Shown here: in pieces, positions 33,327 to 46,542 of the stretch
Numbering within the stretch: the stretch's first letter is position 1
Layout of the letters: every line of letters starts with the position of its first letter
DNA from: Arenicellales bacterium
GTDB taxonomy: Bacteria > Pseudomonadota > Gammaproteobacteria > Arenicellales > Poriferihabitantaceae
NCBI GenBank assembly: GCA_965116595.1
Contig: OZ220708.1
Span: forward strand, 1,590,875 to 1,654,874
Direction: 5' to 3'
DNA: 64,000 nucleotides
The notes under the pieces: generated by a model
Seen by the model: only the letters and a program-made list of their open reading frames with translations
What the model was told of the DNA's origin: nothing
Database searches by the model: none
Program-made: the position numbers and the translations under genes

Positions 33327-33614
33327 TCAGGTCTGCAACGCGCGAATCACGGCCGCAGGCTCTTTAGACAGGACTTGCAGTAATACTCGGGAAACGCCTG
33401 TTGGCGTTCGTCTGCCCTGCTCCCAATCTTGTAAAGTTCGCTGACTTAAACCAAATTGTAACGCAAATTGTTTTTGCGTCATGTGCATACTGGAACGAAT
33501 CGCCGAAACATCAATATCATCAGGTACATGAACAACACAGCCATTCTCTTTGCCTTGAGCAAATTCCAGGGCTTCCAACGCACCTTTAATAATACTTTTG
33601 CCTGCTTCACTCAT
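33327..33614 (-). CDS. HigA-like Xre HTH antitoxin
   Basis: MTQKQFA..FGLSQRTLQDWEQGRRTP; overlaps toxin stop. Confidence 0.88.
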   Translation of the reverse strand: MSEAGKSIIKGALEALEFAQGKENGCVVHVPDDIDVSAIRSSMHMTQKQFALQFGLSQRTLQDWEQGRRTPTGVSRVLLQVLSKEPAAVIRALQT

Positions 33615-33963
33615 TATATGATACCTCCGAATTTTTATAGTGTTTGACCATTGATTTTAAAACCCGTTTTAACGTATTTTTTTCATGCTGTGTTAAGTCC
33701 ACTTTCTGATTTTTCGTGAATATTGACAGCAAAAATAATGGAATAGATTCGCCTGAATAAAAAGTAATGACACGATAACCACCACTTTTTCCAGCCCCGG
33801 GACGTGCAAAACGTACTTTTCTAGCTCCACCAGTTCCCGTTATTTCGTCGCCAGCCACAGGATTTTCAGCAAGATAACCAATTAACTCTCTTAACTCAGC
33901 ATCAGATATTTTTACCGCCTTGGCGCAACGGATGAATTCGGGTGTTTCGATGATTGTCTGCAT
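33607..33963 (-). CDS. HigB-like RelE/ParE-family toxin
   Basis: NPVAGDEI.GTGGARKVR..GKSGGYRVI; toxin-first gene order. Confidence 0.88.
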   Translation of the reverse strand: MQTIIETPEFIRCAKAVKISDAELRELIGYLAENPVAGDEITGTGGARKVRFARPGAGKSGGYRVITFYSGESIPLFLLSIFTKNQKVDLTQHEKNTLKRVLKSMVKHYKNSEVSYNE

Positions 33964-34038: not shown

Positions 34039-34830
34039 TCAAGGCGCGTTCAGCCAATTATCCGGGCCTCCCGCCTGCGGACGGAAAAAGCAGATCATCC
34101 GTCCGTCCGGTCCGGCCTCGGCGTTTTCCCTCCAGGGCGCTGTGCCATGCAGCGCCAGGCGATGAACCACGAATGATTCTCCCGGCCGGGCATGGATCAA
34201 AACCCGCCGGCATTGACTGAATATGGTCCGTCGGGCCTGTTTGTAGATTTCGGTGATGTCCAGGTCGCCCCATTGCTCTGGCGGCAGTTTATGCCAGGCT
34301 GACCGGAAAGTTTGCCGGATGATTTCATGGGAGCCTTCCCAGACGACAAAAGGGGCGGCGTCGGAACTGAACGCCACCATTGGGATACCGAGAATGAACG
34401 CATGGTACTCGCGTAGGTGCCTGCGTCTATCGGGCCCTTCCGGCAGCAGGCCATCGACATGGGCGGCATCGCGCCTGAGCCGGTAGCGGTGCGACTGCGG
34501 TGTTTCAGAGGCTCCGGCCCGGGGATAACCCGGATAGCAAACGGAGATTTGGCCGGGGTCCAGGTCAAAATCGGTTATCCGCAGTGATTGCCGGATAAAC
34601 TCCATGGCGGTTCCCGCCAGAGGGCCGGAGTCACCCACCTCGCCGAGCCCGGTGTTGGGCAACACATTGACCCCGGCAAACCAGGTGCCATTACAGCGCA
34701 ACCATTGTCGGTTACGCTTCGCGTTGACCTGCTCTCTGGCACAGGGCAACACCTTGTCCACCCAGGCTTTTAGAACGGGATCAAAGTTAATCAGGCGCCA
34801 ACCGTTTTTATAAAAGAGACGGGTGTTCAT
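34039..34830 (-). CDS. Hypothetical protein, possible PhyH-like Fe(II)/2OG dioxygenase fold
   Basis: AHVDG...VWEGSH...LALHG facial-triad-like pattern. Confidence 0.5.
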   Translation of the reverse strand: MNTRLFYKNGWRLINFDPVLKAWVDKVLPCAREQVNAKRNRQWLRCNGTWFAGVNVLPNTGLGEVGDSGPLAGTAMEFIRQSLRITDFDLDPGQISVCYPGYPRAGASETPQSHRYRLRRDAAHVDGLLPEGPDRRRHLREYHAFILGIPMVAFSSDAAPFVVWEGSHEIIRQTFRSAWHKLPPEQWGDLDITEIYKQARRTIFSQCRRVLIHARPGESFVVHRLALHGTAPWRENAEAGPDGRMICFFRPQAGGPDNWLNAP

Positions 34831-34943
34831 GAAATCATGGTCCGTACAGGGGCATTAATTTTAAGGTGCTGTCCAGCCCCGTTCAATCAGGGTGAATGAG
34901 AGCAACCTGTTTTTTTCGATGCCATCTGATATTATAAGACCTG

Positions 34944-34959
34944 TTAAAAGATCTTTTAA
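34944..34959 (+). promoter_or_regulatory. Perfect 16-bp palindrome, putative antitoxin operator
   Basis: TTAAAAGATCTTTTAA, 12 nt before ATG 34972. Confidence 0.6.
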
Positions 34960-34971
34960 ATGGTTAAAAAT

Positions 34972-36327
34972 ATGAGCAATACACACACCATTCTGGCCGA
35001 TGTGAGCGCTGGAATTTCTGAGTTGAAGAAAAACCCGATGTCAGTTATTGAACAGGGTGAAGGCGCTCCGGTGGCGATTCTGAACCGTAACAAGCCAGTG
35101 TTCTATACAGTGCCTGCTGATGCCTGGGAGGAGTTGATGGATAAGCTGGAAGATATTGAATTGGCCGCGATTGCCAAAACTCGAATGGGGCAGCCGGAAA
35201 TCGAGGTTCCACTGAATGATCTGCCGGAGGTCGGGAGATTTCACGACGACGCTGACCAGTCCTGGACTTTGCCCGGGATCTATTACTACGACCCGGCTGT
35301 CTATGCACAGGAAATGCGCGATATATTTGCTGATAGCTGGCAGTACGTCTGTCATCAAAGCGATCTGCGAAACCCCGGCGATTACGTTGTACGCGACCTT
35401 GGCGACCAGAGTGTGGTGGTGGTGCGTGACCAGAACGGCGCGATACAGGCGTATCACAATGTCTGTCGCCATCGCGCCCACCGGCTGCTCGAAGATTCCG
35501 GCAAGACCGGCGCCCTGATCGTTTGCCCCTATCATAACTGGACCTACACCCTCACCGGTGAACTCAAATTCGCGCGGCACAGCGATCAGATTGCCGGATT
35601 TGCCCGCGCTGAATTTGGTCTGAACCCGGTTCGGGTGGAATCCTTCTGCGGATTCTGGTTCATCAATCTGAACGCTCAGGCCGACTCTCTGGCGGATGGC
35701 CTGGATGAACTGGAATGGGAAATCCGGGAATTGAGTCCCGACCTGGATAATCTCAAACGGGCAAGCCGCCGTGAAATCAGGCTGGCGGCAAACTGGAAGA
35801 ACTCGATGGAAAACTATTCCGAATGCTATCACTGTCCCAATCAGCATCCCGGTCTGGCGCAGGATTCGCTGGAAATGGAGTCCTACCAGATCACCGTCTA
35901 CGACAAGTATCACAGCCATGCCAGCCGTGGGGCTGGCGACGCCGCCGCTCAGGCCGGTTCATCCGATCATGATTCGGGGCGCGAGTTTGGCAGTTGGTTG
36001 CTGTGGCCGAATTTTGTTGTCGAGGTCTATCCGGGGGGCTATCTGAATGTATTTTATCATTTGCCTGTCGGGGTGGAAGAAACCCTGCAAATCTGCGAAT
36101 GGTATTTCCCGAACGAGACGCCAACCGAACAGCAACAGCAGGTGATTGACTTCGTGGACCAGGTGCGCGATGAGGATGTCCCGCTTTGTGAAACCGTGCA
36201 AAAGGGATTACACAGCGCGGGCTATACGCAAGGGAGATTTGTCGCAAATCGGGATCGAAGCTGGTTCAGCGAGCATGGTGTGCATGATTTTCAGAAGAAG
36301 GTTCTGCAGGCTCTCGGCGCCTGGTGA
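34972..36327 (+). CDS. Phd/StbD-type antitoxin domain fused in frame to a Rieske non-heme iron oxygenase alpha subunit (choline/carnitine/betaine monooxygenase-like)
   Basis: First 84 aa: AGISELKKNPM..PVAILNRNKP.FY..V.LNDL; then CRHRAH..CPYHNW Rieske motif and NWK..ENY.ECYHC..H iron site. Confidence 0.88.
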   Translation: MSNTHTILADVSAGISELKKNPMSVIEQGEGAPVAILNRNKPVFYTVPADAWEELMDKLEDIELAAIAKTRMGQPEIEVPLNDLPEVGRFHDDADQSWTLPGIYYYDPAVYAQEMRDIFADSWQYVCHQSDLRNPGDYVVRDLGDQSVVVVRDQNGAIQAYHNVCRHRAHRLLEDSGKTGALIVCPYHNWTYTLTGELKFARHSDQIAGFARAEFGLNPVRVESFCGFWFINLNAQADSLADGLDELEWEIRELSPDLDNLKRASRREIRLAANWKNSMENYSECYHCPNQHPGLAQDSLEMESYQITVYDKYHSHASRGAGDAAAQAGSSDHDSGREFGSWLLWPNFVVEVYPGGYLNVFYHLPVGVEETLQICEWYFPNETPTEQQQQVIDFVDQVRDEDVPLCETVQKGLHSAGYTQGRFVANRDRSWFSEHGVHDFQKKVLQALGAW

Positions 36328-36361
36328 AAGCCTGCCGTATTTCATCCGGCGTTCACGAGTC

Positions 36362-37243
36362 TCAATCCGGGCTTCCCTTCCCCGATCTTAAGGCCCGGCA
36401 AATGAAGGAGACGGTCCTGATTCGGCGTTCGCGGAGATTGCGGACCTGATTTTTGACCATTTCCGGGAAGTCATCGCCGAGAATGACCTGGAAGGATGCC
36501 GGCGGCGCTGATGATTCGGCGGATAGCCCAATCCGGGTCGCGGTTTTCGACGCCATTCTCTCAAACCAGCTTTGGCTTTGTTCGGTGGAATCAATAACTT
36601 CGAGTAACCTGAATCCTGCATCCGCAAGCAGGACAGTCATCCGGTCGGTCGTTGCCAGATGACTGATGTGCGGGTCCCGTGCCCAGGGAACCGGGTACAA
36701 TACGTCGCCTCCCTCGCCCTGGAGTACGTCATAGACCGCGAAAATACCACCGGGTCTGATGACTCTTTTTGCTTCAGCGTATACCCTGTCCTTGGCCTTG
36801 ATATTCATCGCAGCATGAATGGTCATGGCCGCATCGAACTGATTTTCCCGGAAGGGCAGGCGGGTTGCGTCTCCTTGCCGAAAGTCAACCCGGTCTGACA
36901 GCCCTGTCCATTCGGACAGCGTGGTTGCCGCATGGCAAAAAGCGGGGGTCAGGTCAATGCCGGTCACCCTGCAACCATACACTTCGGCCAGGCACCGGGC
37001 GGGCCCGCCCAGACCGCTTCCGATGTCAAGCACATGACTGCCCATCGACAGGTTCATCCACGCTGCCAGTTCCAGGGTCGCGCCACGTCCGCGGATGTGG
37101 AACTCATCGAAGGCAGCCAGGTCCCGGGTGGTCAATTGCGCCAGGCTTTTCCCACTTTCCTCCAGAGCGCCCGCGATCAGATCGGCCAGGGTTTCGCCAT
37201 CGCCATAGTGCGCTATGACCGGGTTTTGCTTCGGTTCTTTCAT
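36362..37243 (-). CDS. Class I SAM methyltransferase (sarcosine/dimethylglycine N-methyltransferase-like)
   Basis: DEFHIRG, VLDIGSGLGGPAR, GDAT.LPF; start uncertain (up to 37327). Confidence 0.8.
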   Translation of the reverse strand: MKEPKQNPVIAHYGDGETLADLIAGALEESGKSLAQLTTRDLAAFDEFHIRGRGATLELAAWMNLSMGSHVLDIGSGLGGPARCLAEVYGCRVTGIDLTPAFCHAATTLSEWTGLSDRVDFRQGDATRLPFRENQFDAAMTIHAAMNIKAKDRVYAEAKRVIRPGGIFAVYDVLQGEGGDVLYPVPWARDPHISHLATTDRMTVLLADAGFRLLEVIDSTEQSQSWFERMASKTATRIGLSAESSAPPASFQVILGDDFPEMVKNQVRNLRERRIRTVSFICRALRSGKGSPD

Positions 37244-37475
37244 GATCTGCTTTGTGAGTTCATGTGTCTTGAGCCTGTACATTAAACCAAATCCATCACC
37301 AGGGACAGGCCGGATGCCTGCCCGCAATCATTTGAGGGCGATGTCGGATTGGGTGATGCAGATTGACCGGTTGTATCCAATACAGTTATGCCAATTCAAA
37401 CCAGGATTTTGAAGTAGCCTGAATTTCTGTTAGACTTCAATCTATACTAATTCCCGCTCAGGCAGAGCGAATTGC

Positions 37476-39161
37476 ATGATTATTCGGGACCTCACGCCAA
37501 AACTGATCAATGCGGCGACTCGGTCGCCCGCAATTACGCTCACCGGGCCTCGGCAAAGTGGCAAGACTACGTTATGTCGCGCCGTGTTTTCCCGGCATCC
37601 GTATGTTACTCTCGAAGCGCCGGATGATCGTGCATTCGCATTGGACGACCCAAGGGGGTTTCTGGATCAGTTCCCGGAAGGCGCGATTATTGACGAAGTG
37701 CAACGCGCGCCAGATCTACTCTCTTATCTGCAAGGTATCATTGATGAGGATCCGCAGCCCGGACGCTGGATTCTCAGTGGCTCGCAAAACCTGTCCTTGC
37801 TGGAATCGGTCAGCCAGTCGCTGGCCGGGCGAACAGAAGTTCACCATCTGTTGCCGTTGACCTGTGGCGAGATTTCACGTTTTGATTCGCATCCCGGAAA
37901 TCTCGAAGAAACTCTTTATGCCGGAGGTTATCCCCGCATCTTCGATCACAATCTGGTTCCGGCAAATTGGCTCCGTTCGTATGTCGCCACTTATCTTGAG
38001 CGGGATGTGCGTACTCTCAGCAACATCGGCGATCTGGTGATGTTCCAGCGTTTCGTCGAGTTATGCGCAGGTCGCACTGCACAGTTGCTTAACTACTCGT
38101 CACTGGCTAATGATTGCGGCATATCGCAGCCGAGCGCGAAAGCATGGCTCAGCATACTGGAGGCGAGTTTTGTTGCTTTTCGCCTGCCGGCGTTTCACGC
38201 CAACCTGCGGAAACGGCTCGTGAAAATGCCAAAACTGTATTTTTACGATACCGGTCTGGTCTGTTGGCTTCTGGGGATCCGTCAACCTGGACAACTTCGT
38301 TCACACCCACTGCGCGGAGCAATCTTTGAGTCATGGGTTGTCTCGGAGGTTCTGAAACACCGGATCAATCGTGGTGAGAGAGGCGGCCTGTGTTTTTATC
38401 GGGACCGCAACGGGGCTGAAGTTGATCTCGTCATAGAAAGGCCGGATGGCCTTACATTGGTCGAAGCCAAGTCGACCATGACGGCCTCTTCAACCCTGTT
38501 CAATGGGCCCCGGCGTGTTCGCGGGCATTTCGACAGTGTCTCCCAATCCTGTAAGATTGTGGTCGCCTATGGCGGTGAGCAGTTTCAGCAGCGCGAGGAC
38601 GGGCGGCTGGTTCCCTGGCGAATGCTGCGCGCTGTGAGTCTGCTGAATTCCGAGTTCATCGTTTCGGTCTTCGCCGATGGCAGGCCAGTCGCTAATGCCA
38701 GCGTTTTGGTCCTGATGACAAACAAGACCTGGAAACGGGCTGTGACTGACAAAAACGGAGAGGCGATGCCCAACCTGTATTCTGTTCATATTCCGATGAC
38801 TGTCTATGTGGCGATGGAAGGTTTTACAGCGCATGTGGAGCGTGACTGGATTCCGGCCGAATGCACGCTCCATATCGAACTGAAAGCGCTTCCCAACGGC
38901 AGTGGAGCCGTGTTTTTTGAGAACGGACAGGGTCGCATTCCGGGGCTGACAGGGAGATTGAATCCGATCCGGGACAGCCAGGACAGATTGCATCTTTACG
39001 CGGACAACATTTCTGTGAACGATGGGGAGCGGCAGCCGGTTCCCTTTGCTATTGGCGAGGAGTTGCGCGCCACTGACACCGATGGAAAGGAAAAGCGGCT
39101 GCGCGTCGTCGATATCACGGGCCGGTCGGCCCTGCTCGAATACCATTCAACCCGCGATTAG
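37476..39161 (+). CDS. AAA+ ATPase with DUF4143 (COG1373-like) plus ~170-aa C-terminal extension
   Basis: GPRQSGKT, IIDEVQ, LSGS, KMPKLYFYDTG, EVDLV..EAK; extra beta-rich tail. Confidence 0.85.
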   Translation: MIIRDLTPKLINAATRSPAITLTGPRQSGKTTLCRAVFSRHPYVTLEAPDDRAFALDDPRGFLDQFPEGAIIDEVQRAPDLLSYLQGIIDEDPQPGRWILSGSQNLSLLESVSQSLAGRTEVHHLLPLTCGEISRFDSHPGNLEETLYAGGYPRIFDHNLVPANWLRSYVATYLERDVRTLSNIGDLVMFQRFVELCAGRTAQLLNYSSLANDCGISQPSAKAWLSILEASFVAFRLPAFHANLRKRLVKMPKLYFYDTGLVCWLLGIRQPGQLRSHPLRGAIFESWVVSEVLKHRINRGERGGLCFYRDRNGAEVDLVIERPDGLTLVEAKSTMTASSTLFNGPRRVRGHFDSVSQSCKIVVAYGGEQFQQREDGRLVPWRMLRAVSLLNSEFIVSVFADGRPVANASVLVLMTNKTWKRAVTDKNGEAMPNLYSVHIPMTVYVAMEGFTAHVERDWIPAECTLHIELKALPNGSGAVFFENGQGRIPGLTGRLNPIRDSQDRLHLYADNISVNDGERQPVPFAIGEELRATDTDGKEKRLRVVDITGRSALLEYHSTRD

Positions 39162-39234
39162 TAAGGAATCAGGTCCTTAAGACCTCCCCTGGGATTGTTC
39201 GCTACAGCGATTTGGTATTCCTGTCCCGCCGGTA

Positions 39235-39756
39235 TCAGGCGAGATCAATTTTTACCGGTACTGCCCGAGTCAGCGTATGGCCTACCGGAGAGGTGGAAGT
39301 CACCTTTTCGTGTAATTCCCGAAGCGCTTCCGGTGAAGCGTCACTGTCGATATCCACTGTAACCGAGATATTGTCATAGCCGGCGTTTCCTTCTTTCAAT
39401 CCAAGAAAGGTATGCAGATCCAGGTCGCCTTCGAGCTTAATGGTGATATCCTTGACTGTGATTCCGGCGGCGGTGGCATTGGCGGCGTAACCGACTGCCA
39501 GACAGTTGCCCAGCGCGCCGAGCACCTGTTCCACCGGATTGGGGCCGGTATCCGTGCCGCCCAACGCGCCCGGTTCGTCCGATGCCTGGGGGGTGAATTC
39601 GCGTATTCTGGCCTCGGAGCGAAACCCTCCGTTCCATTTGACTTCGGCGCTCCATTTTGTTGACGCAACTTCGGGCTGTTGCTGTATCCTTTCAGCCAAG
39701 CTGGCAACGGCAGAGATCTGAACATCATTCAGGGTGGTTGTAGTGGTATTTGGCAT
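39235..39756 (-). CDS. OsmC/Ohr-family protein
   Basis: DEP..LGGTDTGPNPVE..L..LGNC; second Cys not evident (SPV instead of CPV). Confidence 0.85.
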   Translation of the reverse strand: MPNTTTTTLNDVQISAVASLAERIQQQPEVASTKWSAEVKWNGGFRSEARIREFTPQASDEPGALGGTDTGPNPVEQVLGALGNCLAVGYAANATAAGITVKDITIKLEGDLDLHTFLGLKEGNAGYDNISVTVDIDSDASPEALRELHEKVTSTSPVGHTLTRAVPVKIDLA

Positions 39757-39771
39757 GTCGCAAGGTTTCCA

Positions 39772-39850
39772 AGATGAACGATACCGGATTGTATTATTCA
39801 CAGGAATACAAGTAAACCGGACATAAGTCCTCCTCTTGCCATTGTTCTGT
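39772..39850. repeat. Repeat A, copy 1
   Basis: Core TACCGGATTGTATTATT..GGAAT..AGTAAACCGGACATAAGTCC matches 40617-40665. Confidence 0.85.
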
Positions 39851-39854
39851 TCGG

Positions 39855-39926
39855 CAGTCAATCATTTCCGGCAGATTCCTGACACCCCGATCTGGTCTTG
39901 AAATTGATACTTATCTATCAATATCT
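39855..39926. repeat. Repeat B, copy 1 (72 bp)
   Basis: CAGTCAATCATTTCCGGCAGATTCCTGACACCCCGA...TATCAATATCT matches 42064-42135 with few mismatches. Confidence 0.9.
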
Positions 39927-40273
39927 GGCGACTCAATCTCTGCGAGCATGATCTGCACTACGCGGCGCAATTCCGGCAGGTTGCTGGTTGCATAAAGCCA
40001 GACCAGACGCGGCGCTACATGGTCGTAGCCATGGGCCAGATAGTTCCGAAAATCGATGATGTGGCGCATTTCGGGAATCCGACCGGCGAGATCTGGATGA
40101 TCCGCATTCAGGCGATTGACCGCTTCACCGATGATCTCGAACTTGCGTTCGACTGCGGCCTGCGTCCGCGCATCGGACGAGTAGGAGGCGCTGTCCATGC
40201 CGTCAATGAACAACTGTATGTCGGCACCCGCCTGATCAATGTCCGTCAACAGGACTCGGGGGTCACGTCGTAT
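39911..40273 (-). CDS. HepT/DUF86 HEPN ribonuclease toxin; expected start codon reads ATA (possible pseudogene)
   Basis: AVERKFEIIGEA, FRNYLAHGYD (R-X4-H); 5' end ATA CGA CGT GAC CCC overlaps the MNT stop. Confidence 0.8.
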   Translation of the reverse strand: MRRDPRVLLTDIDQAGADIQLFIDGMDSASYSSDARTQAAVERKFEIIGEAVNRLNADHPDLAGRIPEMRHIIDFRNYLAHGYDHVAPRLVWLYATSNLPELRRVVQIMLAEIESPDIDR

Positions 40274-40574
40274 AAACAAGTTCGCGGGATTCGTTGATGG
40301 AGGCACGCAGATACGGGTTGCGGAACTCGTGATTTTCGACCAGATCCACAGGGCGCCCCAAGACATCGCTCAGCGCGTCGACGAGGCCGAAGAACTGTTC
40401 GAGAGGCTGCAGGTCGCTGTCGGGATCGAACTCGACAAGGAAATCGGCGTCACTGGTGTCGGGATTGAAATCCACGCTGCGCGCAGCTGAACCAAACACC
40501 TCAAGACGCACGACATCGTAGCGTTGGCAGAGTTCGGCCAGATATTCCTTCTTGTCAGCAATGGCGGGGTGCAT
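40263..40574 (-). CDS. MNT (minimal nucleotidyltransferase) antitoxin
   Basis: VFGSAARS...SDADFLVEF, VLGRPVDLV. Confidence 0.9.
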   Translation of the reverse strand: MHPAIADKKEYLAELCQRYDVVRLEVFGSAARSVDFNPDTSDADFLVEFDPDSDLQPLEQFFGLVDALSDVLGRPVDLVENHEFRNPYLRASINESRELVYTT

Positions 40575-40600
40575 GCCTGACCCTCCCCGTGGGTGTCTCC

Positions 40601-40685
40601 AGATGAATGATATTGTTACCGGATTGTATTATTTGCGGGAATGCGAGTAAACCGGACATAAGTCCACCGCCTGTCATTATACTGT
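40601..40685. repeat. Repeat A, copy 2
   Basis: Homologous to 39772-39850; TATAAT hexamer on minus strand near 40675-40680. Confidence 0.85.
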
Positions 40686-40706
40686 GTGACTGGTTCAAGG
40701 GAACGA

Positions 40707-41804
40707 TTAGTTGTCTGGAAATGCTGGAAATGCTGGAAATGCTTTCAGCAAACTGTCCGCTATTTGGGTCATCTGTGTGACGGCGTCATCTATGACCCTG
40801 TCTCGTTCGACGCCGGTCTTGAGGCGGATGGGGATATACAGCCATCTGTCGTTAGGATCAGGCTCCTTCACATTATCCAAGAGTCTGCATATCTCCTTAG
40901 AATGGCCGGCAATGCCAGAGAGCTGCTCATTGCAATCAACGTGCCACCACAACGGTGTGATTCCGTTAGCGCGCCATACTTTCAGGTCAACCCCGAACCA
41001 TGATTCAAATTTCCCGAGCACACGTAAATTGCGGCCAGCGGTGTAATATGAGTTAGAAGCGCGTCCCTCCGTATCGGCGATTTTCTCGTTCTTCAGCTTC
41101 ACTGTAATGTCGTAAACCAGGTCGACGTAGTTGATCTGGCGACGTGCTATGCCCTGATCGGTAACCTCATCGGCACGAAGTGGCAGAAATGCTTCTGTAT
41201 CCATCTGGTTCGTCAGCCCCTGCAGTTGGAGGATGTCCCGTCTGATGGCGTCGTATCCGCCGGAATGGGCAGCGTCCAGCAATCCTTTCAGGACGTATTT
41301 CCAGCTCGTGATCAGCATGGTCTTACCGTCAACTTCGGCCCAAATTACGGAGCCATTGTCGGCGCCATCCTTCTGTTCGAGTTTTGCTTCGTCGCATCGC
41401 GCCTTGAGCTCGTTCCAGACCGTATGGATTCTCTGTTCCGGAACGATGAACACGAGGGCAGACGGAGGTTTTTCTACCTTGAGATATGATACAGGTTGCG
41501 CTTCGGTCAGCCCGGCCCAGAATTTGTTCTCGATGAAGATATAACTATCACTGTCACTGTCATAGATCGTCAAGTCTGGACGACTATCTCCATGTCCAAG
41601 CTCTGCCTGGATGCGTACTGGCTTGAACTCCTCGAACTTGCTATTTGCATTACGCAGCATGCCGAGGAACGAATCGGCAATATACGTAGACGATTTCAGT
41701 ATGAAGGCGAGTGCCTGTGTTGCCGCAGGTTTGCTCGAAAGCGAGCCACCAAGAACGACATGCGCCAGTACGCTATTCGGGGGTGTTGTAGCAGTATTTG
41801 ACAT
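40707..41804 (-). CDS. PD-(D/E)XK nuclease-domain protein
   Basis: RPDLTI...IFIENKFWAGLTEAQP.SY. Confidence 0.8.
   Translation of the reverse strand: MSNTATTPPNSVLAHVVLGGSLSSKPAATQALAFILKSSTYIADSFLGMLRNANSKFEEFKPVRIQAELGHGDSRPDLTIYDSDSDSYIFIENKFWAGLTEAQPVSYLKVEKPPSALVFIVPEQRIHTVWNELKARCDEAKLEQKDGADNGSVIWAEVDGKTMLITSWKYVLKGLLDAAHSGGYDAIRRDILQLQGLTNQMDTEAFLPLRADEVTDQGIARRQINYVDLVYDITVKLKNEKIADTEGRASNSYYTAGRNLRVLGKFESWFGVDLKVWRANGITPLWWHVDCNEQLSGIAGHSKEICRLLDNVKEPDPNDRWLYIPIRLKTGVERDRVIDDAVTQMTQIADSLLKAFPAFPAFPDN
40715..40743. repeat. 9-bp tandem repeat x3
   Basis: (CTGGAAATG)3, giving the protein terminus AFPAFPAFPDN. Confidence 0.9.
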
Positions 41805-41889
41805 GTCGAGGCCTCCAAATGAATAATACTATTATTACTGGATTAAGGATACAGATGATTGTATCGGTTCAGGGTGGCTTCTGGGTGTT

Positions 41890-41962
41890 GTAGGGGCGGG
41901 TCTCCGTGCCCGCCCGTTCCGGGCTCAGTCAATAACGGGCGACCACAGAGGGTCGCCCCTAC
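41890..41962. repeat. GTAG-type REP doublet (REPIN-like)
   Basis: GTAGGGGCGGGTCTCCGTGCCCGCCC ... GGGCGACCACAGAGGGTCGCCCCTAC in inverted orientation. Confidence 0.8.
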
Positions 41963-42063
41963 GTCATTTATTACAGACCCTGCCATCAAACCGCCCGTCA
42001 CCAGATAACCATCGCCTGACAGCGTCTTCTACGACCTCGTCCCGTTCAACGCTGGTCTTGAGA

Positions 42064-42135
42064 CAGTCAATCATTTCCGGCAGATTCCTGACACCCCGAC
42101 CTGATCCTGAAATTGATACTTGGCTATCAATATCT
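42064..42135. repeat. Repeat B, copy 2
   Basis: Matches 39855-39926; followed by IR TATCTATCAAT-N9-ATTGATAGATA. Confidence 0.9.
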
Positions 42136-42239
42136 ATCAATTTTTCAATAATTGATAGATAAGTGTTATTATTTGCCGCGAATCCACTTCATTTCGATAA
42201 TCGGGACAACTTGATACTGATCCACTAAACTATCAGTTT

Positions 42240-43166
42240 ATGGAAAAATATAATCTTGATGCTGAAATAAGCCGTTTTTTAACGGATTCGTCACAGTATT
42301 ATCCGGATCATCCGGGTCCCCGCACGGTGGAGGACGAGCGTCGCTGCTATGATCAATTGTGCCGCGCTTGGCAGGCGCCCATTCCCGATGGGGTATTGTT
42401 CACTGACAGTACGGTTGGCGCCGCCAGTGGGGACCTGAAGATACGGACTTATGAAAAACCGGCGGTAGAAACGGATGTCACGATTCTGTATTTCCATGGC
42501 GGCGGGTTTATTCTGGGCGACCTTGAAAGTCATCATTCCATTTGCGCTGAAATCGTGGACCGGTGCGGGTATCGGCTGGTCGCCGTGGATTACCGGTTGG
42601 CGCCCGAATTCACCTGGCCGACCCAGATCGAGGACGCTGTGGATGTGTTTCTGACGCTGGATCGGGGAAAAACAATCGTAGCCGGAGATTCCGCTGGCGG
42701 GCTGATGACTGCGGCAGTGTGCATTTCCCGGTGTGATCAGGAACGGCAACCGGTTGGACAGTTGTTGATTTACCCGGTATTGGGCGGACAGCAATTCGAC
42801 TACGATTCGTATCGACTGTTGAGCGATGCCCCCGGTCTTACCAGCGACGACATCGAACGATACCTGAACTTCTGGGCGACCCCCCCGTTCCCCTGGTCTG
42901 ACCCGCTGTTTGCGCCGTTGAGTTTCGATCAATTTGAAAAACTGCCGCCCTGTTTCGCCATTGCAGCCGAATATGATCCGTTGAAGGATGACGCCAGGGC
43001 TTATGTTGACAAGCTGAATGAGGTTGGCGTGCCGGCGGATTATTTCGAAGAGACGGGTTTGATCCACGGTTACCTGCGTGCTCGTCATTGCAGCGCAAAA
43101 GCCGGCCGAAGTTTCACCAGGATATGTGATTGCCTCAACATTCTTGGCGAAAGAATCAAATCATGA
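42240..43166 (+). CDS. Alpha/beta hydrolase, HSL (family IV) esterase
   Basis: YFHGGG, DYRLAPE, GDSAGG, YDPLKDD, HG. Confidence 0.93.
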   Translation: MEKYNLDAEISRFLTDSSQYYPDHPGPRTVEDERRCYDQLCRAWQAPIPDGVLFTDSTVGAASGDLKIRTYEKPAVETDVTILYFHGGGFILGDLESHHSICAEIVDRCGYRLVAVDYRLAPEFTWPTQIEDAVDVFLTLDRGKTIVAGDSAGGLMTAAVCISRCDQERQPVGQLLIYPVLGGQQFDYDSYRLLSDAPGLTSDDIERYLNFWATPPFPWSDPLFAPLSFDQFEKLPPCFAIAAEYDPLKDDARAYVDKLNEVGVPADYFEETGLIHGYLRARHCSAKAGRSFTRICDCLNILGERIKS

Positions 43167-43310
43167 GTTCGGAGCAGCATGAAAAGCCGGGCGAAATTTT
43201 TTACTTCGCCACTTTTTCCTGAAATCCATCATGGAACCCGAAAATTGAAGTTCGGATACAATGCCGATATAGTTTATGAATCTAAAGAAACAGGATCGGG
43301 ACAAACAGTA

Positions 43311-44099
43311 ATGAAACAAAATTTCGGATGTGGCATCGTGCGGTTTCATGCAGCTATCGCGTTGTCGGCTTTCTTTTTGTTGACTTTCCCTGATCCCTCG
43401 AGCGCCGGGGAGGACGATGTTGTGTCCGCTCAAAGCGGAGTCTACGCAGGCGTCTTCGCTGCCCGCAGTCGAATCAGTAACAGGATCGTCGATGTCGACG
43501 GTTTTGCCAATTGGGGGCAGAGCGGATGGGCCGTCGATTACGACAATTCCGGGTCTGCCGGCGGCGTATTGATCGGCAAGAGGTACGAGCAGGGCGGCGT
43601 GTCACTCAGGACTGAAATCGATATTATGTCAGGCGGTATATCGGCGACATCGAACAGACTGGATCCGGAAGGCCTGGACGAGACGGTCAAGGCGGAGTTT
43701 CGATCCATCGTAACGGCGCGCATGGGAATTGAGCGCTCTTTCGGTCCGGTCGTGGTATTTGCCTCAGGCGGACTGGCGATTGCCTGGATTGAGAATTCGG
43801 TTACCGACATTGATTTTGGTCCGAACATAACGACACGGATCGATCCTGACGATTCTTTTCGCGACAGTTCAATAGAAGGCGGCTGGGTGGTGGGTCTCGG
43901 CGCCGAGGCGCCTCTGTCCGATGCTTGGACGTTGCGGTTTGAGGGATTGCAGATGGATTTCGGGCAGGGCACCCATTATGTCAATCGCTCCGGCAATAAC
44001 CGATGCGGGCCGGGGTTGCCGCAAAGGTCGTGCCCCTACAAGGTCAAGAACAAGGCCGGTGTCTTCAGACTGGCAATCATCTATCGATTTAGCGGATGA
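43311..44099 (+). CDS. Outer-membrane beta-barrel protein (Omp25/RopB-like)
   Basis: Signal-like N-terminus, GVYAG, GWVVGLGAE..W.LR.E, C-terminal YRF; start uncertain. Confidence 0.75.
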   Translation: MKQNFGCGIVRFHAAIALSAFFLLTFPDPSSAGEDDVVSAQSGVYAGVFAARSRISNRIVDVDGFANWGQSGWAVDYDNSGSAGGVLIGKRYEQGGVSLRTEIDIMSGGISATSNRLDPEGLDETVKAEFRSIVTARMGIERSFGPVVVFASGGLAIAWIENSVTDIDFGPNITTRIDPDDSFRDSSIEGGWVVGLGAEAPLSDAWTLRFEGLQMDFGQGTHYVNRSGNNRCGPGLPQRSCPYKVKNKAGVFRLAIIYRFSG

Positions 44100-45384: not shown

Positions 45385-46371
45385 TCAGCGTAGAAAGGAG
45401 GCGGGGAGCACGGAAATTTTGCTGTCAACAGATTTGCGGGGCGATGTTGTCTTCCTCTTGTGCGTTTGCGGGTGCCAATTCGTAGCCAACTCTATAAATG
45501 CTGCACAAGCCGGGTTGATATAGCCGTATCGGTGCCAGATCAGGCTGACGGCGTGTTGCGGCAAATTGACCTCCAGTTTTATTGAATGCAGATTACTCCG
45601 ATTATCGATAATGCTCTTCGGCAGGATGGTAGCAAGCCTGCCGGACTCGACAAGTTCGAGAATGACACTGACCGAGTTGGTTTCGATCGCGATCTGCGGG
45701 GTGAGCGAATGCTTTTTGCAGTATTCATCGATGTGCTGGCGCAGGGCAAAGTCCCGGTTGAGCAACACCATTGAAAGCGGGGAGTCAGATTGCGGCGTCT
45801 TGCCCTGGGCAAACTTCGCAAGTGGATGTTTGTCGCCGACGGCGAGGAACAGCGACTCGTTGAACATGATTCGGGTTTCGAATTCCTGGACACGCACATT
45901 ATTTGCATCGGGTTGGGTGAACGCAATGCCGATGTCGATCGTGTCTTCAGTAACGGACTGTTCGAGGAATTCCTGAGACATTTCGAAGGTCGACAGGATA
46001 ATTCCGGGATGCTGATGGTGGAAGCTGTCGATCAGGTCATAAGTCAGGTGATCGGTTATCGGCGTCCAACCAACCCTTAACGTACCCCGGCTCAAATCAC
46101 GGACATCATTGACCGCACGTGCACCTGCGATCATCTCGGCACGCGCACGCTTGGCGAACCCATGAAAGATTTCACCTGCATCGGTCAGCCGCACGGTACG
46201 CCCGGGTCGGATTAGCAGTCGGGTCTGGAGCAAACCCTCCAGTTGCTTGATCTGTTGCGATAGCGAGGGCTGGGAAACGTGCAGGACCTCCGCTGCCCGG
46301 GAGAAACTGCCATATTCAACGATGGTAAGGAAATACTCCAATGCCCTCGGAAATATGATTTTTCGGTACAT
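45385..46371 (-). CDS. LysR-family regulator, CynR-like
   Basis: GSFSRAAEVLHVSQPSLSQQIKQLE; divergent from scnBAC. Confidence 0.9.
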   Translation of the reverse strand: MYRKIIFPRALEYFLTIVEYGSFSRAAEVLHVSQPSLSQQIKQLEGLLQTRLLIRPGRTVRLTDAGEIFHGFAKRARAEMIAGARAVNDVRDLSRGTLRVGWTPITDHLTYDLIDSFHHQHPGIILSTFEMSQEFLEQSVTEDTIDIGIAFTQPDANNVRVQEFETRIMFNESLFLAVGDKHPLAKFAQGKTPQSDSPLSMVLLNRDFALRQHIDEYCKKHSLTPQIAIETNSVSVILELVESGRLATILPKSIIDNRSNLHSIKLEVNLPQHAVSLIWHRYGYINPACAAFIELATNWHPQTHKRKTTSPRKSVDSKISVLPASFLR

Positions 46372-46510: not shown

Positions 46511-46542
46511 AGGATATAATTATATCCTATAGACCCGATAGG
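46511..46542. promoter_or_regulatory. Overlapping palindromes, candidate LysR box
   Basis: Perfect 18-bp AGGATATAATTATATCCT (46511-46528) and CCTAT-N7-ATAGG (46526-46542, fits T-N11-A). Confidence 0.6.

Follow-up and report, generated by a model that had tools for sequence, protein, structure and literature searches.

Toxin-antitoxin (TA) modules of the stbDE type combine a StbD or Phd/YefM antitoxin with a toxin of the RelE/ParE class. Antitoxins of the Phd/YefM class generally need their toxin for tight operator binding, a behaviour known as conditional cooperativity. When such modules erode into orphan antitoxins, the toxin is selectively lost and the antitoxin persists together with its promoter. 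DNA-binding domains are also found joined to enzymes, as in the trigger enzymes PutA (a ribbon-helix-helix domain with proline dehydrogenase) and BirA, which are ancient and widespread and whose regulation has been shown experimentally. Here we describe a gene in which a StbD/Phd-like antitoxin is continuous with a Rieske oxygenase. It lies on the forward strand of a 64,000-nucleotide stretch of contig OZ220708.1 from an Arenicellales bacterium (assembly GCA_965116595.1), which we call the window. Comparison with related genomes strongly supports an origin of this fusion by deletion from a stbD-stbE-oxygenase arrangement.

The region 34960-36327 (+) is one open reading frame (ORF), listed with 455 residues from the ATG at 34960. 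In all related cassettes the antitoxin begins at the ATG equivalent of 34972, with the sequence MS(N/S)THTILADV..., and the likely fusion product is therefore 451 residues long (34972-36327). Its antitoxin half comprises 84 codons, is complete and ends in ...EVPLNDL at 35223; no stop follows codon 84, and the frame continues for 367 more codons. In Pfam searches, PhdYeFM_antitox (PF02604) matched residues 18-68 with 28.6 bits, slightly below the cut-off of 29.8, Rieske matched residues 126-212 (75.9 bits) and Ring_hydroxyl_A residues 262-452 (108.6 bits). The NCBIfam model phd_fam (TIGR01552) was above its cut-off (21.8 vs 20.8 bits). The ORF, the Pfam matches and an AlphaFold2 model all place the StbD/Phd-like, Rieske and catalytic domains in a single polypeptide. 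A first-pass annotation, made from the letters of the window, had read this locus as a complete 84-residue StbD/Phd-like antitoxin running without a stop into an intact Rieske oxygenase, and ORF and domain matches agree with that reading. The parts of the gene are:

34972..35219 (+): StbD/Phd-YefM antitoxin-derived part, codons 1-82 plus 2 nucleotides (nt), from TIGR01552, PF02604 and identity to the stbD genes of the relatives L008 and L007
35220..36327 (+): part contributed by the oxygenase (alpha subunit of a CntA-like Group V Rieske monooxygenase, codon 11/12 through to the stop), from comparison with the relative L004, the protein P0001 and CntA (6y8j)
35216..35219 (+): deletion junction ATGA, common to the stbD end/toxin start and to oxygenase codons 10-11, from the BLAST overlap 35217-35219 and base-level comparison
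35203..35218 (+): relic toxin translation-initiation region with GAGG at 35203-35206 and ATG at 35216-35218, by homology to L007 10241-10256 and L002 6793-6808

The nearest relatives of the window are sponge-associated metagenome-assembled genomes (MAGs) labelled Arenicellales or Candidatus Poriferihabitaceae, a family name that appears in a sponge genome note (PMC12859430). In one related sponge symbiont, L007 (OY761989.1), stbD, the toxin gene and the oxygenase gene are three separate genes. Their neighbours on either side are those of the fusion, namely the divergent 263-aa gene and the convergent methyltransferase gene. StbD of L007 has 84 residues and the overlapping toxin 94, the latter matching TIGR02385 (RelE_StbE) with 30.3 bits against a cut-off of 27.9. 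The toxin is also present in L008 and in L002, where it is a match to Pfam ParE_toxin. BLAST aligned window 34043-35219 to L007 9079-10257 and window 35217-37267 to L007 10662-12719; the window is therefore the L007 layout minus 404 bp. Collinearity extends to both sides of the fusion in L004, L006, L007 and L009, and the flanking features of the window are:

34039..34830 (-): divergent upstream gene of 263 aa, the conserved left flank, syntenic in L004, L006, L007 and L009, for which neither Pfam nor NCBIfam gave a match
36362..37327 (-): convergent class I S-adenosylmethionine-dependent methyltransferase gene, the conserved right flank, identified by family matches and syntenic in L004, L007 and L009
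36427..36445 (+): terminator-like hairpin 3' of the fusion ORF, from a sequence scan

The left breakpoint lies directly after ATGA (35216-35219), that is, after the toxin start codon and one further base, which overlap the Asp-Glu codons of the antitoxin. The right breakpoint lies within codons 10-11 of the oxygenase, between G(A/G)TGA and TCTGCCG. The microhomology at the junction amounts to 3-5 nt (TGA in comparison with L007, GATGA with L002 and L004), the join is in frame, and all that the window retains of the toxin gene is ATGA. The idea that a deletion had joined the two genes at shared Asp-Leu codons, put forward in the first-pass annotation, is borne out by the undeleted L007 arrangement, to which the window corresponds except for 404 bp, with the join at the D(D/E)L codons. 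The join recreates a natural antitoxin C-terminus: among 80 homologues, the last three residues are DDL in 30, DEL in 26 and NDL in nine.

All 80 of these antitoxin homologues in genomes are stand-alone proteins of 71-85 aa, and at 62 of the 80 loci a toxin-sized ORF follows from the same overlapping ATGA. BLAST of each half had been suggested as a check, and it recovered unfused homologues for both. The best 120 database homologues of the antitoxin half are all stand-alone (84-128 aa, nearly all 84) and all carry a precomputed PF02604 assignment; several are named 'antitoxin StbD', and the antitoxin half is 74-87% identical to proteins named StbD or Phd/YefM. Homologues on plasmids are annotated as Phd/YefM antitoxins with an overlapping RelE/ParE toxin. 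The best 120 homologues of the oxygenase are likewise all unfused (322-396 aa), and those inspected start with M(N/S)..., followed by LP.(I/V/T)G(K/R)FHDD. Since the homologues of both halves are unfused, the fused state is derived. No ParE/RelE homologue of the lost toxin and no second copy of the antitoxin or the oxygenase was found elsewhere in the 64 kb of the window.

Searches for a second fusion, likewise proposed beforehand, covered 5.8 billion proteins, 1.84 billion cluster representatives, 185,579 species genomes and the JGI metagenomes, and left the fusion a singleton. The full-length protein found no other fusion, exact look-ups with three alternative starts gave no match, and neither did a junction 42-mer in the species genomes nor a gapped junction pattern and a lineage-tolerant 3' pattern in the JGI metagenomes. 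A junction-spanning query of 126 aa against the 1.84 billion representatives did not yield a fusion either.

The ATG at 35216, out of frame with the fusion, is homologous to the start codon of the toxin in intact cassettes, as had been supposed; at the homologous positions in L007 and L002, ATGAGTTATAGG begins a RelE/ParE toxin of 91-94 aa. In the window it opens a different frame, which the first-pass annotation had called junk:

35216..35518 (+): 100-codon ORF in the +1 frame that begins at the relic toxin ATG and whose product is predicted to be junk (ORF list)

The same +1 frame, with a start at the equivalent position, is open in L007 (10661-10963), L008 (10038-10340) and L009 (10092-10394). 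We considered the 100-aa ORF as a real gene and rejected it, because it is open in the relatives simply as a result of the conservation of the overlapping oxygenase sequence.

The deletion also changed the upstream region of the oxygenase. In six relatives, a promoter-like TGGACA-N18-TAGAAT lies about 30-36 nt 5' of the oxygenase ATG; L007 is one of the six, and there the element is downstream of the toxin gene. The window has lost it, together with the native ribosome-binding region and start codon of the oxygenase; expression must therefore now use the antitoxin promoter and start codon. The proposal that the oxygenase had captured a TA promoter fits this comparison, given that the cassette leader is kept and the promoter within it is a putative one. 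The leader contains the following elements:

34888..34971 (+): leader of the stbD-stbE cassette (promoter/operator region), delimited by alignment with cassettes at other genomic positions, whose homology begins here
34927..34935 (+): extended -10-like TGaTATTAT, the putative TA promoter, conserved in four cassettes
34937..34954 (+): family-type inverted repeat AGACCTGTTAAAAGATCT, the candidate and most likely StbD operator, with 16/18 matches to the consensus AGACCTGTTAACAGGTCT
34944..34959 (no strand): perfect 16-bp palindrome TTAAAAGATCTTTTAA, read from the sequence
34960..34962 (+): in-frame ATG upstream of the stbD start, owed to an A>T change specific to the window, from the cassette alignment

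BLAST homology to the L002 and L008 cassettes begins at 34886-34890 and homology to the cassette-free L004 and L009 stops at 34887. A simple sigma-70 scan that required a -35 element called no plus-strand site in the leader, so that the TA promoter at 34927-34935 stays a predicted one. The window-specific A>T at 34961 changes the Shine-Dalgarno-like motif of stbD from AAAGG (L002 and L007; AGGG in L008) to AATGG, which may lower translation of the fusion or may be neutral.

The 16-bp palindrome had been taken for a putative TA operator. It is indeed perfect, also in L007, with one mismatch in L008 and in degraded form in L002. As a statistically significant signal we rejected it, with two perfect 16-bp palindromes observed in the window vs 0.97 +/- 0.92 in composition-matched shuffles; what counts is its position. 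The family-conserved dyad is offset 7 nt to the left and overlaps the palindrome, starting right after the -10-like element. AGACC-N8-GGTCT occurs with constant spacing in 13 of 81 homologous upstream regions vs 16 of 4000 control segments, and the consensus AGACCTGTTAACAGGTCT is itself an 18-bp palindrome with the family dyad AGACCT-N6-AGGTCT. The window copy has one arm mismatch (G>A), common to L007, and the L008 copy has perfect arms; the same G>A is the change that makes the overlapping 16-mer perfect. Evidence at the family level thus favours the dyad at 34937-34954 over TTAAAAGATCTTTTAA as the likely StbD site. The other perfect 16-bp palindrome of the window (GGATATAATTATATCC, 46512-46527) is located about 140 nt 5' of a LysR-family regulator gene (45385-46371, -) and is a possible LysR operator.

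Neither half of the fusion appears to have decayed. The best solved match of the oxygenase is CntA (6y8j, E 9e-75), and the oxygenase part has 95.2% nucleotide identity to L004 and 90% amino-acid identity to P0001. In the residue numbering of CntA (PMC7948474, PMC10952381), the Rieske ligands are kept, with CRH...CPYH of the window aligned to Cys86/His88/Cys106/His109. ECYHCPNQH aligns to E205-C206-Y-H208-C209-x3-H213 and an 'ED' to D323, such that the His208/His213/Asp323 triad, the bridging Glu205 and the Group V pair Cys206/Cys209 are all retained. The scores of the NCBIfam equivalog models are far under their cut-offs (190 vs 670 bits for the GbcA model). The first-pass annotation had pointed to the missing reductase gene, and the large ORFs in the interval 26-47 kb of the window did not include one. 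This does not set the fusion apart, as none is adjacent to the unfused orthologues either; the partner reductase may be encoded elsewhere in the genome.

On the window branch, the oxygenase has acquired 12 synonymous and 6 non-synonymous substitutions, vs 8 and 8 in the unfused sister L004 (Fisher p = 0.49). The antitoxin half has 98.0% nucleotide identity to stbD of L008 and 89.8% to that of L007, and its three window-specific codon changes are one synonymous change, A46T and A70T. Threonine at positions 46 and 70 is seen in natural antitoxin homologues; only P80, which L008 shares, is outside the family range. No signal of relaxed selection was detected in the oxygenase or the antitoxin half, on counts that are small.

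In the AlphaFold2 model, computed from a combined alignment, the predicted local distance difference test score (pLDDT) is >90 for the oxygenase and <50 for residues 78-105 across the junction, which is therefore located in a predicted disordered linker. Confidence is low for the N-terminal alpha/beta unit, which is no surprise where an obligate dimer is modelled in monomeric form. CntA forms a head-to-tail alpha3 trimer (PMC7948474). The crystallised CntA chain has extra N-terminal residues, with homology beginning at chain residue 31, which suggests by analogy that N-terminal extensions of the oxygenase can be tolerated.

These observations can be combined into the following course of events. 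A stbD-stbE cassette (Phd/YefM antitoxin, RelE/ParE toxin) was located between the divergent 263-aa gene and the CntA-like oxygenase gene, as it still is in L007. A 404-bp deletion at the 3-5 nt microhomology ATGA then took out the toxin gene except for ATGA, along with a spacer of about 90 nt containing TGGACA-N18-TAGAAT, the oxygenase ribosome-binding site and the first 10-11 codons, with an in-frame stbD::oxygenase gene as the outcome. Comparison documents the steps up to this gene; those that come after it we infer. The TA promoter (extended -10, 34927-34935) would be the sole source of transcripts of the stbD::oxygenase gene, and translation would begin at the stbD start. In the 451-aa product, a disordered linker of about 28 residues would connect the StbD dimerisation/DNA-binding domain with a complete oxygenase; the linker would comprise the toxin-binding tail of the antitoxin and the N-terminal tail of the enzyme. 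In the fusion, the oxygenase has most likely remained functional, since a deletion that broke the frame would silence it and would be removed by selection. The StbD moiety would at present be a passenger, exerting at most weak negative autoregulation through the AGACCT-N6-AGRTCT dyad, which overlaps the predicted transcription start; weak, because the toxin as co-repressor is lost. The fusion is thus probably a young, lineage-specific by-product of TA decay by microhomology deletion, retained as an expressed in-frame oxygenase fusion, and not a demonstrated adaptation. Both processes behind it are known: the erosion of TA modules, and the fusion of genes by a deletion that also captures a promoter.

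Several observations weigh against this explanation. As the fusion is a singleton, its persistence under selection is conjectural, and by chance alone a third of all deletions keep the frame. Its junction is read from assembled sequence, and its expression is predicted. Ribosomes may be drawn into the junk frame by the toxin initiation site that is still present, and the window-specific change weakens the Shine-Dalgarno-like motif of stbD. The low ratio of non-synonymous to synonymous substitutions may simply predate the deletion. Finally, a dimeric StbD domain on an alpha3 enzyme constitutes a symmetry mismatch, for which aggregation or loss of activity are possible.

The same symmetry mismatch (with CntA as the alpha3 reference, PMC7948474) and weakened Shine-Dalgarno-like motif would be expected of a nascent pseudogene, in which the deletion killed the oxygenase via mis-assembly, poor translation or lost regulation, too recently for decay to have set in. 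That the fusion is a singleton and its antitoxin cassette only 2% away from the L008 copy fits such a young locus, and the frameshifted toxin in a sister species, described below, hints at ongoing TA erosion in the clade. Against this stand an open frame of 1353 nt, the conservation of every catalytic ligand and a ratio of non-synonymous to synonymous substitutions on the window branch that is not above that of the unfused sister L004; further, an in-frame outcome is what selection for kept function would filter for. We consider a nascent pseudogene unlikely.

Adaptive domestication, the reading favoured in the first-pass annotation, would make the fusion a selected trigger enzyme, in which the captured StbD domain represses its own former TA promoter and the former toxin-binding tail serves as a protease-sensitive or conformationally responsive linker. 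It would be a direct natural snapshot of a TA regulatory module co-opted to control metabolism. In its favour, the DNA-binding domain, the promoter-like element and the family-type dyad are all kept while the native promoter has gone, the two halves are intact and show no decay, and the linker is predicted to be disordered. Yet no second lineage has the fusion, the dyad has an arm mismatch in the window (also in L007), antitoxins of this class generally depend on the lost toxin for tight binding, and no evidence of selection is specific to the fusion. What speaks for a self-repressing enzyme is its architecture, and domestication is distinctly unlikely.

For a third explanation, the relevant feature is an internal start codon within the antitoxin half:

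35185..35187 (+): in-frame ATG giving a 380-aa product of near-native length with the N-terminus MGQPEIEVPLNDLP... vs native MNKPLMLSSDDLP..., from the sequence and homologue lengths

Internal initiation at this codon would make a near-native oxygenase of 380 aa the functional product, and the long fusion a minor or unstable one. The N-terminus obtained in this way is of native length and similar character, and tblastn alignments of unfused orthologues reach exactly the residue of this ATG. However, there is no stop between stbD and the oxygenase, so every ribosome that starts at stbD makes the fusion, and upstream of the ATG we found no Shine-Dalgarno-like sequence and no promoter-like site, all of which renders internal initiation as the main route very unlikely. 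The junction tryptic peptide MGQPEIEVPLNDLPEVGR is common to the fusion and to the product started at 35185.

Last, an artefact, be it an error of assembly or consensus, a chimeric library molecule or a promoted minority variant, might be suspected from the reliance on an assembly and from the failure to find the exact protein or junction in any public collection searched, but it is barely credible, as 3-5 nt of breakpoint homology are too short to collapse an assembly (the relatives are long-contig sponge MAGs with chromosomes of 2-3 Mb, a kind of data in which such a collapse would be improbable), both flanks are collinear with four related genomes, and the junction, clean, in frame and at a microhomology, is of a type typically left by real deletions through replication slippage or illegitimate recombination.

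The stbD-stbE cassette of about 0.7 kb, with the same left and right ends, occurs in three different places around the oxygenase in related genomes (window 34888-35219, L007 9960-10570, L008 11325-11970, L002 6480-7110). It is located upstream of the oxygenase in the window and L007, just downstream in L008, and after an outer membrane protein (OMP) gene in L001-L003 and L005; the upstream site is without a cassette in L004, the closest relative, and also in L006 and L009. The cassette copy of the window is 98% identical to that of L008, compared with about 92% for the flanking genes. Position and identity contrast together suggest mobility or exchange of the cassette; no transposase or obvious recombination site was seen. 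We rejected a simple deletion from the L001-L003 layout, where the antitoxin is downstream of the oxygenase, and it was L007 that gave the correct ancestral layout. Tandem duplication, circular permutation or an inter-strain chimeric assembly are unnecessary assumptions, both flanks being collinear with L007 and L004.

In the toxin gene of L001 (12433-12708), compared with that of L002 (6806-7081), a 1-nt deletion in a C-run (CCCC>CCC) causes a frameshift after about 20 codons. The frameshifted gene is in a 2.99-Mb chromosome assembly (L001/L005) and is intact in two assemblies of the same sequence (L002, L003); it is either a second, independent toxin inactivation in the clade or a homopolymer consensus error. 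About 1 kb upstream of the fusion is a second TA-like pair (33327-33963, -), in which a RelE-type toxin (PF06296, 118 aa) overlaps a 95-aa antitoxin-like gene of the HTH_3 family; the identity of this segment to L004 and L005 is 97.6-98.4%, compared with 82-94% in the surrounding DNA. An ORF for a HepT-like ribonuclease toxin (39911-40366, -; 151 aa) implies that yet another TA-type module, the third, is no more than 6 kb away from the fusion. The region 37405-44099 differs from L002/L005 by a large-scale rearrangement, which has changed the order of the OMP gene, an AAA_14/DUF4143 gene and an Abhydrolase_3 gene, the last of these being inverted. Here the gene order of the window agrees with L004, L007 and L009, unlike that of L005-type genomes, and the L005 lineage has a transposase near the rearranged segment.

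With alleles from before and after the event in sister genomes, the locus is an unusually clean natural record, which covers the erosion of a TA module by toxin loss, the swap of promoter and start codon by one microhomology deletion, and the joining of a DNA-binding domain to an enzyme. Should the fusion prove to be expressed and active, it and the unfused, L007-like allele would form a simple test system for the co-option of antitoxin domains as regulators. Otherwise, it would be a young structural variant of an ordinary kind, in a symbiont genome prone to rearrangement.

In comparison with described systems, the fusion is closest to stbDE modules, in which StbD or Phd-YefM is paired with RelE-ParE. 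Its N-terminal 84 codons are orthologous to stand-alone antitoxins of 84 aa, it has the same leader with promoter-like element and dyad, and a Shine-Dalgarno-like motif and ATG for the toxin overlap the last codons of the antitoxin. It differs in that the toxin is cut down to ATGA and the antitoxin runs without a stop into an enzyme, so that it is no longer a TA system. To the carnitine monooxygenase CntA/YeaW and other Group V Rieske oxygenases (GbcA, Stc2), it corresponds in the architecture of the Rieske and catalytic domains, with Cys-x-His...Cys-x-x-His, His-His-Asp, the bridging Glu and Cys-x-x-Cys (PMC7948474, PMC10952381). Unlike these, it has a DNA-binding domain of 84 residues at its N-terminus, no reductase gene nearby and equivalog scores under the cut-offs.

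The antitoxin half also matches the N-terminus of DnaT, weakly but specifically (NCBIfam NF002770, E 4e-6; PDB 9zbu, E 0.04); in the search of solved structures, these weak DnaT matches were the only ones, and no Phd/YefM structure passed. The N-terminal domain of DnaT is an earlier instance of a Phd-like fold recruited outside TA systems. The relation is remote, however, and DnaT is a replication-restart protein with no enzyme fusion.

From PutA and BirA, the fusion differs in its DNA-binding fold and in being a singleton seen so far as sequence. The likeness is a functional analogy: a small dimeric DNA-binding domain and an enzyme are in one polypeptide, beside an operator, here a putative one, at their own promoter. 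With orphan antitoxins and other products of TA erosion, it shares the selective loss of the toxin from a persisting antitoxin and promoter. It departs from them in that the deletion in the window simultaneously produced a translational fusion and provided a metabolic gene with a new promoter.

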